A model generated the notes under the pieces. That model was given only the letters and a program-made list of their open reading frames with translations, searched no databases and was not told the DNA's origin. Positions 1,144 to 7,853 of a DNA stretch of 32,000 nt are shown one piece after another. A program made the position numbers and the translations under genes. Each line of letters begins with the position of its first letter. Position 1 is the first letter of the stretch. Origin of the DNA: Acinetobacter parvus DSM 16617 = CIP 108168 (GTDB taxonomy: Bacteria > Pseudomonadota > Gammaproteobacteria > Pseudomonadales > Moraxellaceae); contig NZ_KB849212.1 of NCBI RefSeq assembly GCF_000368025.1, positions 1-32,000 on the forward strand, in the 5' to 3' direction.

Positions 1144-2622
1144 ATGCTAGACAAAATTGTAATGTGGATACCTGTCAAGACTGATCTTGTTGAATTAACA
1201 AGCGACGGTAGACACTGCATTATTTGTTTTGACCTGCTTGACCTGAATCTTAAAGTTGGCTCTTACGATGTATACAAGGATGAAGATGGGAATGTAAAAA
1301 CTCAAATCCTGCATCATGTCTGGTCAAAAATCCCCACCTCTCATACTGCCATGTCATTCAAGCTGTTCCATGATGTTCCTGGGCATCCGTATGTGGAACT
1401 GAAATGTTCACCTGCCAAGATCATGCAAGGGCATAACGTATACGGCACTGACTGGATAGAAGAGGGTGCTTTGGAAATGTTGGGCTTCTTGGCTCAATCA
1501 AACCCTGCGCTTTATGACATCCTCGATGTCGGCATGACTGAGGTTAAGCAACTCGACGCAACCTACTCATTCCGTTTTCGTGATGACCGAGAAGCTGAAA
1601 AGGTTCTGGCCTTGATGCGGAATGTCTCAACACAGCACATCCGCAAATCCACCAAAGATGCCATGTTCAAGAATACGCTGTATTTCGGTTCTGAACGTTG
1701 CAAGCGTTTTGCCCGTAAAGTGTATGTGAAGTCCAATGAGTTCCACGAACAATTACAGGAACAAATCAAGCTTGCCAAGGCAAATGACAAATGTGCCCAG
1801 CGTGTCGTTAAGGTCATGTCCGATCCTGAACTACAGGCCTTTGCACGTGGTCTATTAAGATTTGAAACAGGCATCAAAGCCTACGTTATGAAAGAACTCG
1901 ATATCCCAACTAATTTATTCCAGCTTATCCGTTACCAAAAATCCAATCCCAATTTTTTACAAGACATCTGGCTTAAAGCAAATCGTCAATTATTCCAAGC
2001 ATTTGAGGGTACAAACATGAAAGTATCTGACCATGAAACTGTATTTAAAAATATTCTTGCCGTTCACCAAACCGTATCCACTGAAAAGAAAATCTGTACA
2101 AGAAAGGTCGATGAACTCATGGAGTTTTACCTCCTACTGGAGAGCATTGGCCACAATGAAACCAAAAAGAAATATACCCACAAGCGTTTCCTCAACCTTG
2201 CAGCGGACCTGATTGATGCGGGCTTTAGTGGCACATACCTCCAGCGCCTACATGAGAAGCCGTCACAGAACTTTTCCCGTTTTGACGTCTATATCCAGAT
2301 ATTCAAGGCTTTCAGGAAAGAAATCCCTGCGGGCACGGTGTCAGACCGTAAGGCTCGGAATATCGAGCGTTTCTACTATGACATTGAAAAATTTGGCTTT
2401 GATGAAATGCGAACTAAATATAGCAAAGCTCAATTCTGTAAATTGGTAGCAGCTTTAGAAAAGTGTGGTTATTCAAAAGTTTATATCCAAAACCTACATG
2501 TCCAGTCAAGCAACAACGTTATCCCATTTATCAAAATGTTCGAAATGAAATTTGAAGATCAGCTACCGCCAAACTTTATCGAACCCGTTTCAACGTTCAG
2601 TTATCAACTACGTACCGCATAA
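1144..2622 (+). CDS. Filamentous-phage rolling-circle replication initiator (gene II/X, Phage_CRI/RstA-like family)
   Basis: 492 aa. The N-terminus MLDKIVMWIPV and the motif ELKCSPAKIMQGHNVYG match my recollection of the gene II/X family signature (sPaKxxqGHNvfG). Position immediately upstream of the ssDNA-binding protein and coat genes. Confidence 0.8.
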   Translation: MLDKIVMWIPVKTDLVELTSDGRHCIICFDLLDLNLKVGSYDVYKDEDGNVKTQILHHVWSKIPTSHTAMSFKLFHDVPGHPYVELKCSPAKIMQGHNVYGTDWIEEGALEMLGFLAQSNPALYDILDVGMTEVKQLDATYSFRFRDDREAEKVLALMRNVSTQHIRKSTKDAMFKNTLYFGSERCKRFARKVYVKSNEFHEQLQEQIKLAKANDKCAQRVVKVMSDPELQAFARGLLRFETGIKAYVMKELDIPTNLFQLIRYQKSNPNFLQDIWLKANRQLFQAFEGTNMKVSDHETVFKNILAVHQTVSTEKKICTRKVDELMEFYLLLESIGHNETKKKYTHKRFLNLAADLIDAGFSGTYLQRLHEKPSQNFSRFDVYIQIFKAFRKEIPAGTVSDRKARNIERFYYDIEKFGFDEMRTKYSKAQFCKLVAALEKCGYSKVYIQNLHVQSSNNVIPFIKMFEMKFEDQLPPNFIEPVSTFSYQLRTA

Positions 2623-2632
2623 GGTGAATACC

Positions 2633-2950
2633 ATGTCTCAATTAATCTTTAAAGCAAAACTACTCGATATCCTAACCTCAGTGGGTGACAAGGGCGAACT
2701 CAAGATGCGTCTTGTTTTCAAGTCCCAAAAATATGATAAGGGTTTGGATGAAATTGTCCCTTGTTCTCAAAATGTCTCTGTTATTTCAGATCATCATCAT
2801 ATGAAAGACTTTTACATGTCATTCAAAGGTCGTGAAATCTATCTGCCAGTTGAGTTATCAACCCAAATGAATGGCATGAACATATTTTATAAAACCACTG
2901 GAGATGGCAAGCCTCTCCAGTTGGAAGAAAAAGCGGTTAAAGCTGCATAA
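2633..2950 (+). CDS. ssDNA-binding protein (gene V / RstB analogue)
   Basis: In-frame ATG at 2633 with an AAGGTG RBS 6 nt upstream. About 105 aa with beta-rich composition. Canonical position between Rep and the coat genes. The longer track ORF (2552) overlaps Rep and is less likely. Confidence 0.65.
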   Translation: MSQLIFKAKLLDILTSVGDKGELKMRLVFKSQKYDKGLDEIVPCSQNVSVISDHHHMKDFYMSFKGREIYLPVELSTQMNGMNIFYKTTGDGKPLQLEEKAVKAA

Positions 2951-2962
2951 GGAATCTAAGAA

Positions 2963-3139
2963 ATGGCACTGGTTTGCAATCAACTCGACTCGACAACTAA
3001 CCAGTGCCTTGAATGGGTAGAAATGCCCACTGTGCTGCCGAAGCTCACACTAGTAGAGGGTAATACCATTGGTTTTGCTTGTCTAATGGTGTTTGCAACG
3101 GTCTTTGTAATCAAGAAGTGCATCAAAGCACTACATTAA
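2963..3139 (+). CDS. Small hydrophobic protein, candidate minor coat protein (pVII/pIX-like); absent from the ORF track (58 aa)
   Basis: My translation is MALVCNQLDSTTNQCLEWVEMPTVLPKLTLVEGNTIGFACLMVFATVFVIKKCIKALH. It has a C-terminal TM segment followed by basic residues. AAGGA lies upstream. The ORF fills the gap between the ssDNA-binding protein and major coat genes. Confidence 0.5.
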   Translation: MALVCNQLDSTTNQCLEWVEMPTVLPKLTLVEGNTIGFACLMVFATVFVIKKCIKALH

Positions 3140-3151
3140 AAGGAGTCCATC

Positions 3152-3421
3152 ATGGACAAATTAACCCAAGATCAAGTAAATGAAGCAATGAACAAAACCT
3201 ATGGCAACCCTGCTGCTTTTGCTGCTGCTGTGAAGAAATATGGCTTTGGTATTGCTGTATCTGCTGCGCTTATGAGCAACGCTAATGCTGCACCAATTGA
3301 CGTTACATCAGTGGTTGGAACCATCACAGATGGCGTGACAACTGTAAGCTCTATTGGGCTTGCTGTGCTGTCTTTAGTTGTAGTTATCAAAGTGTTCAAG
3401 TGGGCACGATCAGCAATGTAA
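3152..3421 (+). CDS. Major coat protein (pVIII/Cep-like)
   Basis: AGGAG RBS 6 nt upstream. Signal-peptide-like ...AVSAALMSNANA then APIDVTS. Acidic N-terminus, hydrophobic IGLAVLSLVVVI and basic C-terminus KVFKWARSAM, which is the classic inovirus coat layout. Followed by a strong terminator. Confidence 0.85.
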   Translation: MDKLTQDQVNEAMNKTYGNPAAFAAAVKKYGFGIAVSAALMSNANAAPIDVTSVVGTITDGVTTVSSIGLAVLSLVVVIKVFKWARSAM

Positions 3422-3426
3422 TAACG

Positions 3427-3455
3427 ATGCCCTCGTTTGAGGGCATTTCTTTTTA
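3427..3455 (+). terminator. Rho-independent terminator after the major coat gene
   Basis: ATGCCCTC-GTTT-GAGGGCAT followed by TTCTTTTT. Attenuation after gene VIII is typical of inoviruses. Confidence 0.85.
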
Positions 3456-3496
3456 ACTGGGTGAAATATGGACATAGAAAGTTTAGGGGCATATAT

Positions 3497-4774
3497 ATGC
3501 ATAATCATGTGGCTAATCGTGGGCGCAAGGCTCTTTTAAAACAAATCTTCTCTGTATTTCTTATATTTACGCTTTACTTCAATTGTTTTAATTCTGCTTA
3601 TGCTGCTGGTGGTTTTGCTCCTTGGTCTATTACAAATACAGTTGTTCAAGGTGCTTCTACAGTGCTGACAGGTACGAAAGAAGTCATTTTGAATGGTGCA
3701 AAAAAAATAGCTACTGGTACAGCAAAGATTACACCTACGGCTGCTCAGGTCTCGAAAGTACTAGCGCGTGGCGCTGCTGGTTATGCTTTATCAGTAGCAG
3801 TGCAACAATTGCTTGGCGCTGTTGATTGGGTTCTTGATCCTGCGAATAATCGAATTACTTACGTTGATCCTAACGTAAAAAGTCCTGCTGATAAATATTG
3901 TCAAGAACAAGCTGCAATTAAGTACGGTGCTGGTAGTGAATGGGCGAAAAAAGCTGTTTATGCTAAAGTTGGTCTTTATGCTGGTTATTGTATTTTATCT
4001 GATAATCCAAATTTTCCTTTATTCCCAGCTGGGACTCAAAATACTACTATTCCTGAAGAAGATAGAAAATCAATTCCTTTAGATACTGTTGCTCAACAGG
4101 TTATTTCTAATGCTGAAAATGGAGATACTAACGCACAAGTAGCAACAACTGCTGCTGCTGCTGACATTATCAATGATGCTCAAACAGACAATACAAAAGC
4201 CCGTCCTATTATCAATCAACTTGAAAATACGCAATCTATTCCTACAGATCAGACAGCAAAAGGTGATGCTGTACCTAAAGAAAATGCGAATACTGAAAAT
4301 CCCAGCTCGTCGGTAGCTGCCCCTGCAACAGATTTAACTTTAGATTTTCCGATTTTCTGTGACTGGGCGCCAAGTATTTGTCAAGCTGCTAAATGGGTCA
4401 TTACACAGCCACAAGTATGGGCTGATGCTGTTACAGATTCTTGGGACTGGACTAAAACAAAATATGAAGCTGCTGTGACATCAATTACAGACTTCTTTAA
4501 AAATGAACCTAATCCTGATTCTGATAATAGTCTGCCAGTCCAAGACATACCTTTGCCAGAACTAAATACGGGCACATTTAAAGCAACTGCAGGCTGTCCT
4601 GCACCTATTCCCATAAATATCACAATTGGCACAAAAGGTACTGGATCAATTAGTTATGAACCTATTTGTCAGTTTGCTTCGAAATGGTCTTTTGTTGCTC
4701 CGCTAATAGGCTTTCTATCAGGTGCAATGATTCTTGTTGGGGTTGGCCGTAAAGGTGAGGATTCAGAGATATGA
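3497..4774 (+). CDS. Minor coat / receptor-binding adsorption protein (pIII/OrfU-like)
   Basis: The ATG at 3497 gives an N-terminal signal peptide (FSVFLIFTLYFNCFNSAYA then AGG). About 425 aa, Ala/Thr-rich with low-complexity linkers. C-terminal membrane anchor FVAPLIGFLSGAMILVGVG. Position after the major coat gene. Confidence 0.7.
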   Translation: MHNHVANRGRKALLKQIFSVFLIFTLYFNCFNSAYAAGGFAPWSITNTVVQGASTVLTGTKEVILNGAKKIATGTAKITPTAAQVSKVLARGAAGYALSVAVQQLLGAVDWVLDPANNRITYVDPNVKSPADKYCQEQAAIKYGAGSEWAKKAVYAKVGLYAGYCILSDNPNFPLFPAGTQNTTIPEEDRKSIPLDTVAQQVISNAENGDTNAQVATTAAAADIINDAQTDNTKARPIINQLENTQSIPTDQTAKGDAVPKENANTENPSSSVAAPATDLTLDFPIFCDWAPSICQAAKWVITQPQVWADAVTDSWDWTKTKYEAAVTSITDFFKNEPNPDSDNSLPVQDIPLPELNTGTFKATAGCPAPIPINITIGTKGTGSISYEPICQFASKWSFVAPLIGFLSGAMILVGVGRKGEDSEI

Positions 4775-5061
4775 GCTTGAAATCAATACTTGTATCTGTC
4801 GCAGATGCAACATTATCAAAAACAGGAAAATCACTTTTAAAGGGTTTGGGTTTAGGGGTGTTTTCTAGTGCTGTTGTACTCACTTTGTTTAATCAATTGA
4901 TTTCTTACGCTCAAACTGAGTGGGGCAAAATGTCTGCTGACGTATTGCAGATACTTGCCCTGGGCAATATTGACTACGGGCTGTCAATCATTGTTGGGGC
5001 ATGTGTTCTCAAGGTTACATTGATGATTAACAAGGTCTCTTTAGGAAAGGCATCAAGCTAA
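4771..5061 (+). CDS. Minor coat protein (pVI/Ace-like)
   Basis: ATGA overlap with the upstream stop. 96 aa with two or three hydrophobic helices. TAATG overlap with the zot start. Confidence 0.7.
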   Translation: MSLKSILVSVADATLSKTGKSLLKGLGLGVFSSAVVLTLFNQLISYAQTEWGKMSADVLQILALGNIDYGLSIIVGACVLKVTLMINKVSLGKASS

Positions 5062-6269
5062 TGGCTATTTATTTAATTGTTGGGCAGCCACGACACGGAA
5101 AAAGCCAATTTGCTGCTAAAATGGCTTATGAATATCACGAAAAAAACATTGAGATTCAAAAACGTATAGATTCTGGAAAGTTTAATCCTGAAACGGACAT
5201 TGTGCGACAAATTTACTCAGATATTGAGGGTCATGCAGAAAAGTGTGACTTTATAAAACTTGCACCAAAAGATTGGCGTGATGTTCCTGATAATTCCATT
5301 ATTTTTATGGATGAAATACATAAAAGGCCTGAATATACTGATAATGATGGCAAAATGTCTCAAAATCCCATGATTGTTGATTTAACAACGCATGGGCATC
5401 AAAATAAAGACATTATCTTGATGACTCAAGACCCACAAAGACTAAACAAGGGTATTAGAGCATTAGTTGAAAAAATGTACTTGGTTAAACGACCAGTTCA
5501 AAAACCTAATTTTGCTACTATCTATGAATTTGAAAGATGGCTTCGTGATCCGTGGCAAGCTGCTGCATCAACACGTACTGTTAATTATCAGGACAGCTAT
5601 AAATTCTTCTATAAGAAAAAATGGCAAGACATGTACACCAGTGCATCTGCTCATACTTCAGTACAGTTCAAAATACAAAGTAAGTTCATTTACGCAATCA
5701 TTGCCATTGTGGTTTTAATGTCTGCGTCATGGTTTCTGTTTACAAAGTCGGGCGGTGACAAGCTCGCACGTAATGCCATAGGTGGCATGACAGGGCAAAA
5801 ACCTACTGAAGAAAATAAAAGTCAATCGACTCAGAGTACGCAATCTGTCCCCAGTGGTACCCAGAATTTAGATACAGAATGCAGAAAAGGCGCAAATGTT
5901 GAAAAACCTGAATGTGTAAAATGGTTTGATCAGATTACCAAAAATGGTTCTTCGGTTTCCCCTGGGGAGAATGGCCATACAACTGTTGCATATAATCCAG
6001 CTCAACCGTTTGATAATGACATACAAAACCATGTTTCTTATGAAGTTACGGCAAAACCATTATTTAGTGGTTGTATGAAAACAGGTAGTAAATATCAAGC
6101 ATATACACAACAAGGGACAAAACTTGATGTATCACAAGCCGACTGTCAGCGTCTCATTGAGAACAACGACAGACCTTTTAATTACTTTGTCAATAATCGG
6201 ACTGATATGTCGAGTACAGAGATGCAGCGAAGCGAAGTTTCTACACAGACAAACCAGCCGACCCTTTAA
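5061..6269 (+). CDS. Zot/pI-family phage assembly ATPase
   Basis: Walker A GQPRHGKS at the N-terminus, Walker B IIFMDEIH, central TM helix FIYAIIAIVVLMSASWFLF, periplasmic C-terminal domain. Canonical gene order. Confidence 0.85.
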   Translation: MAIYLIVGQPRHGKSQFAAKMAYEYHEKNIEIQKRIDSGKFNPETDIVRQIYSDIEGHAEKCDFIKLAPKDWRDVPDNSIIFMDEIHKRPEYTDNDGKMSQNPMIVDLTTHGHQNKDIILMTQDPQRLNKGIRALVEKMYLVKRPVQKPNFATIYEFERWLRDPWQAAASTRTVNYQDSYKFFYKKKWQDMYTSASAHTSVQFKIQSKFIYAIIAIVVLMSASWFLFTKSGGDKLARNAIGGMTGQKPTEENKSQSTQSTQSVPSGTQNLDTECRKGANVEKPECVKWFDQITKNGSSVSPGENGHTTVAYNPAQPFDNDIQNHVSYEVTAKPLFSGCMKTGSKYQAYTQQGTKLDVSQADCQRLIENNDRPFNYFVNNRTDMSSTEMQRSEVSTQTNQPTL

Positions 6270-6295
6270 GATTTCCCGCAACGATGTACAACCCG

Positions 6296-6316
6296 GGGCG
6301 ATCAACGCCCTTTTTT
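6296..6316 (+). terminator. Rho-independent terminator after zot
   Basis: GGGCG-ATCAA-CGCCC followed by TTTTTT. Confidence 0.6.
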
Positions 6317-6610
6317 ATTGCCATTGCAAAAATAGGGCAGAGATCATTAATTCAAAAACACGATAAAAAATAAATAATGATAGAAATAAAATGTTTGACA
6401 ATCTTATTACGACAAATAATGACGTTACAAGATCAAATATTCATCATAAGCAAAACATGTGCCAATAGTGTTTTGTCAATATATATTGTGTATTTTAAGA
6501 TGAAAGGTTATTTCACGCCTTGCCACAATTCATCAAAATCATGCTCTATGCCTCGTTGCGTATGATCTTGGCATGGCGTTATTGGTTCTTGCTGCGAGAA
6601 TTATATTTAT

Positions 6611-6632
6611 GGCTATTCGGAATAAGGTGTGG
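6611..6632. repeat. Left terminal inverted repeat of the cassette
   Basis: GGCTATTCGGAATAAGGTGTGG. Its reverse complement, CCACACCTTATTCCGAATAGCC, matches 7349..7370 except at one base. Confidence 0.85.
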
Positions 6633-6675
6633 AAACTGCCATTTGTTGGTAATTCAAAATAATTCCAATTAACTC

Positions 6676-6704
6676 TTGTTTTGTGAGCGGTCACACTTTA
6701 TAAT
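6676..6704 (+). promoter_or_regulatory. Sigma70-type promoter with an operator palindrome in the spacer
   Basis: -35 TTGTTT (6676..6681), a 17-nt spacer and a consensus -10 TATAAT (6699..6704). The spacer contains TGTGA-GCGG-TCACA (6683..6696). The promoter lies about 25 nt upstream of the GGAG RBS of the 6730 gene. Confidence 0.65.
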
Positions 6705-6729
6705 TAACACATAGACAAGGAGATTGATA

Positions 6730-7152
6730 ATGAAATTATTCCACACAAGCCCAAACAAAATTGAGAAAGTTTCTAAGTTTGGTAACTTTGATGATTGCTT
6801 ATTCTTCTCTACAAATGTTTATGAAATGTCAGCAGGTGAAACTATCACTTACTCAATTAATGCTGATGATATGCGCTTTATCGATGCTTCTGATTTGCAT
6901 GATAGTGAAGTCATAGCGGAAATTGCTGAACGATTTGAGATTGATTTAGATGATGCAGAAAGCTTATTAGATGGCTCAGATAGTGTTTGGAATCATGACT
7001 TTGCTGATGCTGAAAACGATTGGTTCATTCAAGCTAAACGTGGTGAATGTGCTAAAAGAATGGGCTTTGATGGTTGTAAAGATCATGATGAGCAAGGTGT
7101 GGTTTACATCATCCCAATGCTCAATCGTGAATCAATCTTAGTTGAGGAGTAA
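6730..7152 (+). CDS. AcrIF11-family-like small acidic protein (candidate ADP-ribosyltransferase anti-CRISPR)
   Basis: The ATG at 6730 has a CAAGGAG RBS 7 nt upstream. 140 aa. MKLFHTSPNKIEKV...GNFDDCLFFS...Y.M.AGETITYSI...WFIQAKRGECAKRMGFDGC.DHDEQGVVYIIPML matches my memory of AcrIF11 (MEIFHTSP...DEQG...). An H...Y...E arrangement typical of ART folds is present. This rests on recollection and was not searched. Confidence 0.6.
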   Translation: MKLFHTSPNKIEKVSKFGNFDDCLFFSTNVYEMSAGETITYSINADDMRFIDASDLHDSEVIAEIAERFEIDLDDAESLLDGSDSVWNHDFADAENDWFIQAKRGECAKRMGFDGCKDHDEQGVVYIIPMLNRESILVEE

Positions 7153-7157
7153 TTAAA

Positions 7158-7340
7158 ATGGCTCAGACAGCAGCAGAGCGCAAAGCTAAACAACGTCAAG
7201 AAATGTTAGACAAAGGCTTTGTTCGCAAAGACCTTTGGTTATCAAAAGAAAGTCTTGATTTGATCGAAAAATATAAAACAGAAAATAACTTAAAGTCGAA
7301 CGATGATGCGCTTAATCAATTATTAAAGGCTCTAAATTAA
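7158..7340 (+). CDS. Small RepB/RHH-like DNA-binding protein, candidate anti-CRISPR-associated (Aca) regulator
   Basis: GAGGAG RBS 8 nt upstream. 60 aa. AERKAKQRQEMLDKGFVRKDLWLSKESLDLIEK resembles the RepB-type regulatory pattern (AERqxryRxxxxxxGxxxxxvWvxxe). Located 5 nt downstream of the acr-like gene. Confidence 0.55.
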   Translation: MAQTAAERKAKQRQEMLDKGFVRKDLWLSKESLDLIEKYKTENNLKSNDDALNQLLKALN

Positions 7341-7348
7341 GAGCCTTT
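7325..7348 (+). terminator. Hairpin at the end of the cassette operon
   Basis: AAAGGCTC/GAGCCTTT 8-bp stem whose loop contains the stop codon at 7338..7340. It abuts the right IR. There is no clear T-tract, so terminator function is uncertain. Confidence 0.4.
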
Positions 7349-7370
7349 CCACACGTTATTCCGAATAGCC
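7349..7370. repeat. Right terminal inverted repeat of the cassette
   Basis: CCACACGTTATTCCGAATAGCC, followed directly by ATATTTAT. Confidence 0.85.
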
Positions 7371-7446
7371 ATATTTATGTGCTTAAATTTGACCATCCTT
7401 GCCCTGATTACAAAATCCTCCCTCATGTTCTATGAGGGATTAACCA

Positions 7447-7712: not shown

Positions 7713-7740
7713 TTTCCGCATAACTTAGATTATGTTCATT
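7713..7740 (+). other. Inverted, degenerate dif-like site (attP-type partner site)
   Basis: TTTCCGCATAA-CTTAGA-TTATGTTCATT. XerC arm 9/11, XerD arm 9/11 and centre 3/6 versus dif. Orientation is opposite to the dif 85 bp away. Confidence 0.5.
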
Positions 7741-7825
7741 CGGATAGCGTTGACAGTCAAGCTGTCAATGCTCACCATTGCGATTGTAAGAGCGAGAGCG
7801 TTGCTGTAGTGGTGACTTGTATCTG

Positions 7826-7853
7826 ATTTAACATAATATACATTATGCGAAAT
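7826..7853 (-). other. dif: Chromosomal dif site (XerC/XerD, terminus resolution site)
   Basis: Reverse complement ATTTCGCATAA-TGTATA-TTATGTTAAAT is identical to E. coli dif GGTGCGCATAATGTATATTATGTTAAAT except for the first four bases. Confidence 0.85.

Follow-up and report, generated by a model that had tools for sequence, protein, structure and literature searches.

The 32-kb stretch of DNA analysed here (positions 1 to 32,000 of contig NZ_KB849212.1 from Acinetobacter parvus DSM 16617 = CIP 108168; hereafter the window) starts with a filamentous prophage, an inovirus. Just downstream of its zot-like gene lies a 760-bp segment, positions 6611-7370, which is very probably a non-autonomous mobile insertion cassette derived from an element of the ISL3 family and inserted at the AT-rich 8-bp sequence ATATTTAT of the inovirus. 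The interior of the cassette comprises a promoter-like region, two open reading frames (ORFs) of 140 and 60 amino acids (aa) and a hairpin, and ORF1 is a homologue of the anti-CRISPR protein AcrIF11. The evidence consists of the anatomy of the segment, copies at several sites with duplications of their own, one empty site, full-length partner elements and the homology of ORF1.

Terminal repeats and target-site duplication

The left terminal inverted repeat, GGCTATTCGGAATAAGGTGTGGAAA, occupies 6611-6635 on the plus strand and has a core at 6611-6632 that reads GGCTATTCGGAATAAGGTGTGG. The right repeat, which reads GGCTATTCGGAATAACGTGTGG on the minus strand, occupies 7346-7370 (core 7349-7370). 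The two cores are reverse complements with one mismatch (21/22), and the inverted repeat continues inward to 24/25 (…GTGTGGAAA). In 100 shuffles of the window not a single match to the 22-mer was obtained, with up to three mismatches allowed. Each repeat tip is directly abutted by the 8-mer ATATTTAT, the left copy of the target-site duplication lying at 6603-6610 and the identical right copy at 7371-7378; other insertions show other 8-mers at these places. The repeats and the shared 8-mer were thus confirmed as described in an earlier note on this DNA (the original prediction). A repeat finder returned arms of 33 nt (91%, 6603-6635 / 7346-7378), which reach this length because ATATTTAT is itself nearly palindromic.

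With 11 occurrences in the window, where 2.9 are expected, the 8-mer is over-represented and, taken alone, is weak evidence. Its weight comes from the exact abutment at both tips and from the recurrence of the pattern elsewhere. In a first census of 21 candidate repeat pairs (about 18 when alternative pairings within one locus are left out) the flanking 8-mers were identical at 8/8 positions in 12 pairs and at 7/8 in 2. Control flanks shifted by 8-24 bp agreed at a mean of 2.3-2.5 of 8 positions, with a maximum of 6.

Copies at other sites and an empty target

A look-up of the exact ORF1 protein revealed several gene contexts beyond the inovirus. The full-length cassette with both ends was found at five sites: in the inovirus (the window, L001, L003 and L005), in a phage with NinB, terminase and P22-type portal genes (L004 and L006), in L007 and L010, each with a context of its own, and in L014. 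All copies were identical to the cassette over 760/760 positions except that in L014, which was 97.6% identical. The flanking 8-mers were ATATTTAT / ATATTTAT in the inovirus, GAAGTTTA / GAAATTTA in L004 and L006, TATAATTT / TATAATTT in L007 and AAAAAAAT / AAAAAAAT in L014; they were specific to each site wherever both flanks were readable, and the flanks of different sites shared no similarity. The boundaries were constant, GGC…GCC in every copy, and the repeats accompanied the genes at every locus. Partial copies in L008 (another ORF1 context), L009 (ORF1 next to a cI-like repressor) and L083 represent up to three further possible sites.

One metagenomic copy, L073, has the left flank of L010. 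Its positions 352-1017 match positions 1-666 of the cassette only and are followed by what appears to be part of a gene for a DNA polymerase III alpha subunit. The copy is thus either truncated or chimerically assembled.

An unoccupied target was recovered among relatives of the L004 phage, which we gathered via the neighbouring NinB-like gene. In L092, L093, L094 and L112 the target …tgaaaGAAGTTTAagaccc… is uninterrupted and contains one 8-mer (GAAATTTA in L094) and no cassette. The comparison of L004 with these relatives is a textbook case of an occupied against an empty site. The original prediction had expected an empty site among related prophages, and such a site was obtained for the L004/L006 insertion and not for the inovirus site of the window. 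Composite empty-site queries for L004 and L007 gave nothing useful in the phage collection. When the cassette itself was compared with the phage and plasmid collections no second copy was found; the only match there covered the ORF2 gene and its operator (78%) on large Acinetobacter plasmids and in one phage record.

ISL3 elements with the same ends

A scan for the terminal repeats yielded 6 loci in viral contigs with a strict pattern and 26 with a looser one, 9 loci in species-representative genomes and 32 in metagenomes. These included the same cargo at other sites as well as different cargo, and the further repeat copies that the original prediction had called for therefore exist. Every transposase-encoding full-length element that was found with these repeats encodes an ISL3 transposase. 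The conserved end sequence of the clade is GGCTATTCGGA…. A single repeat-like 22-mer with 2 mismatches in L011, a plasmid of Acinetobacter sp. TGL-Y2, has no partner and was treated as a chance occurrence.

The left core of the cassette is 22/22 identical to the transposase-proximal end (right inverted repeat, IRR) of the Acinetobacter elements L016, L027, L071 and L087. The L016 element measures 1917 bp, is flanked by the duplication AAAAAAAT, and has a right end that equals the left repeat of the cassette at 22/22 positions. Its 463-aa protein matched DDE_Tnp_ISL3 (2e-59) as well as the zinc ribbon of ISL3, and a match to the ISL3 helix-turn-helix (HTH) domain stayed below the threshold. Similar elements were found in L027 (Acinetobacter sp. 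P8-3-8), L081 and L087. The right core of the cassette is 22/22 identical to the end of a second ISL3 group (L013, L018, L075 and others), the transposase of which is about 40% identical to that of the first group; the L018 element measures 2540 bp and has the duplication AATATTAT.

ISL3 elements have terminal repeats that start with GG and generate 8-bp duplications. The 8-bp duplications and GG-initiated repeats found here therefore fit ISL3 and not IS6 or IS66. A full-length insertion sequence (IS) with matching repeats and 8-bp duplications, as foreseen in the original prediction, is available in L016, L027 and L087. The example families named there, IS6/IS26 and IS66, had to be given up: the partner transposases that were found are all of the ISL3 type. 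An internal-deletion derivative that retains N- and C-terminal remnants of the transposase, L017, illustrates one route by which transposase-less forms originate.

Some further observations concern these elements. In L016, L027, L018 and others the transposase frame ends within the terminal repeat (TAT TCC GAA TAG, …YSE-stop, in our own reading), so that part of the repeat is also under coding constraint. Positions 724-783 of L016 hold a 60-bp unit composed of two related inverted repeats only (GGCTCTACGGAATAAATGGTGG … CCACTGGTTAATCCGTATAGCC), with no flanking duplication, which may be a minimal miniature inverted-repeat transposable element (MITE) of a sister element. The closest transposase cluster, P0001, led to one metagenomic contig and showed no link to the samples of the cassette. 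The full-length element may already bear a name, and we have assigned none here.

The operon inside the cassette

A putative promoter (TTGTTT, a 17-nt spacer and TATAAT; plus strand) was read from the sequence at 6676-6704. With a -35 hexamer that fits at only 3/6 positions, it was not listed by a consensus promoter scan. The spacer contains the 14-bp palindrome TGTGA-GCGG-TCACA, TGTGAGCGGTCACA, at 6682-6695, a putative operator for ORF2. A ribosome-binding site, AAGGAG, is located at 6717-6722 and is followed by ORF1 at 6730-7152 (plus strand, 140 aa).

ORF1 had a precomputed Pfam match to PF26151 (AcrIF11_ADP_ribosyl), and phmmer aligned it with the PDB entries 8DWQ (AcrIF11_Pae2, 2.2e-18) and 6KYF (AcrF11, 2e-3). 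The residues D146/E147, which are highlighted in AcrIF11_Pae2, aligned to the DE of the HDEQG motif in ORF1. A further match was obtained to phrog_11282 (2.8e-60). We concluded that ORF1 is an AcrIF11 homologue, an ADP-ribosyltransferase-type protein that is predicted by homology to be an anti-CRISPR against type I-F, and the operon that had been called anti-defence-like thereby received a specific assignment. It is established that AcrIF11 ADP-ribosylates Cas8f of the type I-F complex and blocks its recognition of DNA. Homologues of AcrIF11 from Acinetobacter have been reported together with a new associated aca gene, aca10, some of the homologues being active and others not (10.1101/2024.01.05.574328). 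That report is silent on transposition, and its supplement contains neither the ORF1 nor the ORF2 sequence.

ORF2 (7158-7340, plus strand, 60 aa) matched phrog_27670 (3.5e-42) and, weakly, phrog_536, a transcriptional regulator. Its AlphaFold2 model has a helix-strand-helix-helix order (pLDDT 81.6). ORF2 is a putative ribbon-helix-helix repressor of the Aca-like kind, which would act on the palindrome in the promoter. A hairpin, AAAGGCTCTAAA/TTAAGAGCCTTT (inverted repeat I22), at 7325-7348 on the plus strand overlaps the stop codon of ORF2 and is a possible terminator; as it lacks a following run of T, it was not called by a terminator scan. The promoter, the two small ORFs, the hairpin and the lack of a transposase gene are as the original prediction had them.

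The promoter region of the cassette is also present upstream of a homologous regulator operon on large A. baumannii plasmids (L012; NZ_CP027531.1 29500-35000, at 2300-3422). There the identical 14-mer palindrome precedes two small, unrelated ORFs of 105 and 118 aa, which are followed by a 75%-identical homologue of ORF2; a tyrosine recombinase gene lies on one side of the operon and Tn7-like tnsA/tnsB genes lie on the other. Exchangeable upstream genes combined with a fixed regulator and operator are the hallmark of anti-CRISPR loci that have associated regulators, and the 105- and 118-aa ORFs are candidate anti-defence genes.

Alternative explanations

Several results weigh against the interpretation of the segment as an ISL3-derived cassette or against parts of it. 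With the L016 transposase as tblastn query, no ISL3 transposase was matched anywhere in the window. Five candidate pairs of the first census (L025, L060, L077, L080 and L081) lack a duplication, which is also missing from several pairs of the later viral scan. No exact match to the predicted empty site of the inovirus, GCGAGAATTATATTTATGTGCTTAAATTTGACC, was found in viral contigs. Both ends of the cassette resemble the transposase-proximal type, and each of them matches a different transposase group; a simple deletion within any one known element would therefore not account for it. With regard to the cargo, a local Pfam scan placed ORF1 in no family, and the AcrIF11 assignment therefore rests on the precomputed match and the PDB matches. 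For ORF2, 7 of the 10 listed Foldseek matches read as ribbon-helix-helix proteins and none was significant.

The absence of a transposase from the window is also what would be expected of a relic, that is a segment that once transposed or was assembled between two IS ends and is now immobile, its spread depending on the host phages or on homologous recombination between phages. The exact Zot protein was found only in cassette-bearing prophages, all of which carry the cassette at the same site. However, copies identical over 760/760 positions reside at at least four unrelated sites with unrelated flanks and site-specific 8-bp duplications. Recombination would not make duplications at the repeat tips, and the L004 phage offers a clean empty site. 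We consider a relic unlikely. Alternatively, the ends could be XerC/XerD sites like those of the pdif modules on Acinetobacter plasmids, and site-specific recombination could move the cassette; this would suit a phage that itself uses dif and whose prophage has genuine dif-like sites on either side. The right junction, ATTCCGAATAG-CCATAT-TTATGTGCTTA, is indeed loosely dif-like in our own reading. The would-be XerD arm, however, lies outside the element and is different at each insertion site, the flanks are direct 8-bp duplications, and the same ends bound elements with ISL3 transposases. Conserved 28-bp sites with both arms at the boundaries, which a pdif-type module has, were not found, as the outer sequence varies. 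Movement by XerC/XerD is accordingly highly improbable.

The over-representation of ATATTTAT could further indicate that the inverted repeat and its 8-mer are a chance product of AT-rich DNA, or the structure could be an element of the inovirus itself, such as a packaging or origin hairpin. The arms do pair in the predicted single-strand fold, as the original prediction had supposed for the single-stranded phage form; such pairing is trivial for any 25-nt inverted repeat and nothing hints at a function. Against both possibilities stand the shuffled sequences, the related inoviruses, which are without the repeats, and the fact that the repeats recur in unrelated phages as well as in insertion sequences from several genera. 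The probability that chance or phage structure accounts for the ends is practically negligible. A non-autonomous cassette mobilised by ISL3 functions thus remains by far the reading that we favour.

In the mechanism that we propose, an ISL3 DDE transposase from a full-length relative elsewhere in the cell would bind the 22-25-bp ends in trans and move the cassette into an AT-rich target by staggered cuts 8 bp apart, the repair of which would create the duplication. Within the phage, the promoter would drive the AcrIF11 homologue, the cargo being a self-contained operon of promoter, acrIF11 homologue and repressor. The AcrIF11 homologue would ADP-ribosylate Cas8f/Csy1 and block recognition of target DNA by the type I-F system, and the carrier phage or plasmid would thereby be protected. 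ORF2 would then shut the promoter down via the palindrome between the -35 and -10 hexamers.

Sister elements and their passengers

Twelve further transposase-less elements with these ends were identified, and the 8-bp duplication is perfect in eight of them. In L015 an Aca2/YdiL-type regulator is preceded by a 101-aa ORF of no known family. The elements at L062 839-1549 and L188 5967-6557 have both ends and a 91-94-aa HTH regulator in common and carry different small ORFs upstream of it, a 111-aa DUF2525 ORF in L062 and a 71-aa acidic ORF in L188. The first gene thus appears, from the sequence comparison, to have been exchanged within the transposon. The other elements with perfect duplications contain a C5 DNA methylase (L180), a Mom-like protein just under the Pfam cut-off (L183), a hipBA-like pair (L026, Acidovorax), one 78-aa ORF in an element of 303 bp (L066) and a TnpB-like protein only (L020). 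The duplication is not perfect in L181 (a 183-aa acidic ORF), L185 (a 209-aa ORF) and L060, also in L089 (a 159-aa ORF), all with products of no known family, nor in L176, which has the same 564-bp cassette as L183.

In the full-length members a passenger slot follows the left end, ahead of the transposase gene. It is occupied by a Dam methyltransferase in L016, an N6/N4 methyltransferase in L061, a Mom-family protein in L090 and small ORFs of no known family in L023, L027, L077, L080 and L018. The recognisable cargo appears to lean to anti-restriction and anti-CRISPR functions, in a sample that is partly biased to viral contigs. The conserved ends mark where such cargo slots lie, and as recognisable passengers are often of these kinds, the unrecognised small ORFs of the sister cassettes are good anti-defence candidates.

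The element in L020 (Achromobacter anxifer, 2533-4280, duplication ACTTTACT) has a 575-aa TnpB-like protein with a Cas12f1-like TNB domain (7e-21) inside ISL3-type repeats; the ends of one transposon here enclose the nuclease gene of another.

Relation to known systems

Neither mobile insertion cassettes nor AcrIF11 nor anti-CRISPR operons with associated regulators are new. MIC231 of Bacillus cereus is bounded by IS231 ends, and such mobile insertion cassettes, like MITEs, combine the repeats of an IS with a target duplication, lack a transposase and are presumed to be mobilised in trans. The cassette described here resembles mobile insertion cassettes in carrying passenger genes. It differs from MIC231 in being derived from ISL3 instead of IS231/IS4, in its anti-CRISPR operon as cargo and in its phage hosts, which include an inovirus; for a strict MITE it is too long and too rich in coding sequence. 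Among passenger-bearing ISL3 elements (the transporter IS, e.g. ISPpu12), the relatives found here have the GG ends, the 8-bp duplications, the zinc-ribbon DDE transposase and the passenger slot, whereas the cassette has lost the transposase wholly, and the passengers of the clade include DNA-modification and anti-CRISPR-type genes.

The order of a small, predicted anti-CRISPR gene followed by a gene for a small, putative DNA-binding protein, with a palindrome in the putative promoter, is shared with acr-aca operons (AcrIF11). In the cassette, however, the whole operon is placed between transposon ends, and ORF2 is predicted from its model to be ribbon-helix-helix-like, in contrast to the usual helix-turn-helix regulators. 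ctxAB of CTXphi is likewise accessory cargo that directly follows zot and precedes the attachment region, in a filamentous phage that integrates at dif; the cassette differs from it in that its cargo is of the anti-defence type and not a toxin, and in its arrival as a discrete transposable unit.

ISL3 elements are mentioned together with passenger genes in the part of the literature available to us. In the same literature, a search combining anti-CRISPR with ISL3, MITE, target-site duplication or passenger gene returned no paper that appeared to describe an anti-CRISPR operon as a transposase-less transposon. The repeat sequence was not found in any paper of the searched literature.

Anti-CRISPR loci are known in unrelated mobile elements, and their arrival there is usually ascribed to recombination. 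The cassette provides a concrete route, a complete and putatively self-regulated anti-CRISPR operon in the form of a minimal transposon that is unchanged at at least four unrelated phage-like sites, one of its hosts being a filamentous phage whose unit measures just 7.8 kb. If the cassette is of ISL3 origin and mobile as proposed, transposition is a means by which anti-CRISPR genes can pass from virus to virus. In Acinetobacter, CRISPR-Cas systems of type I-F are common, and a mobile inhibitor of this type could affect phage therapy and gene flow in the genus.

More tentatively, and with a probability that we place slightly below an even chance, the ISL3 clade may be a dedicated shuttle that carries anti-defence genes among the phages, prophages and plasmids of several genera of Proteobacteria. 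The full-length members would then keep an exchangeable slot, and they and their transposase-less derivatives would together move anti-CRISPR operons, genes for Dam, N6/N4 and C5 methyltransferases and Mom-like proteins, and related cargo. If this were true, a search for the conserved ends would serve as a new sequence-independent finder of unknown anti-defence genes among the many small uncharacterised passengers.

The filamentous prophage

The prophage at the start of the window contains a G2P-type replication protein (1144-2622), coat and minor-coat genes and a Zot-like assembly ATPase (5061-6269). Its unit measures 7825 bp and is present in tandem in the assembly GCA_042656365.1, which together with GCA_000248155.2 provides the complete host genomes. 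In inovirus relatives with an 86% identical Zot, the interval between zot and the attachment region measures 15-280 bp and is without a homologue of window positions 6270-7404; this interval is thus a variable slot. Since these relatives lack the whole 6270-7404 segment, they are uninformative on the exact target of the insertion in the window. Positions 6270-6602, a piece of 330 bp that includes a 62-aa ORF (6377-6565), have no homologue in the related inoviruses and no family match, and could represent cargo that this slot acquired earlier.

Two sites enclose the prophage, a dif-like one at 1-29 (ATTTAACATAA-TTTTAAG-TTATGCGACAT, with a 7-nt centre) and a dif-type XerC/XerD site at 7826-7853 (ATTTAACATAA-TATACA-TTATGCGAAAT). 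CTXphi is laid out with ctxAB between zot and the attachment region. The cassette lies between zot and the attachment region of the prophage and is therefore in the ctxAB position, in agreement with the original prediction. An inverted dif-like site was additionally found at about 7713-7741, about 85 bp before the site at 7826-7853, and this arrangement of dif-like sites recalls the folded attachment site of CTXphi.

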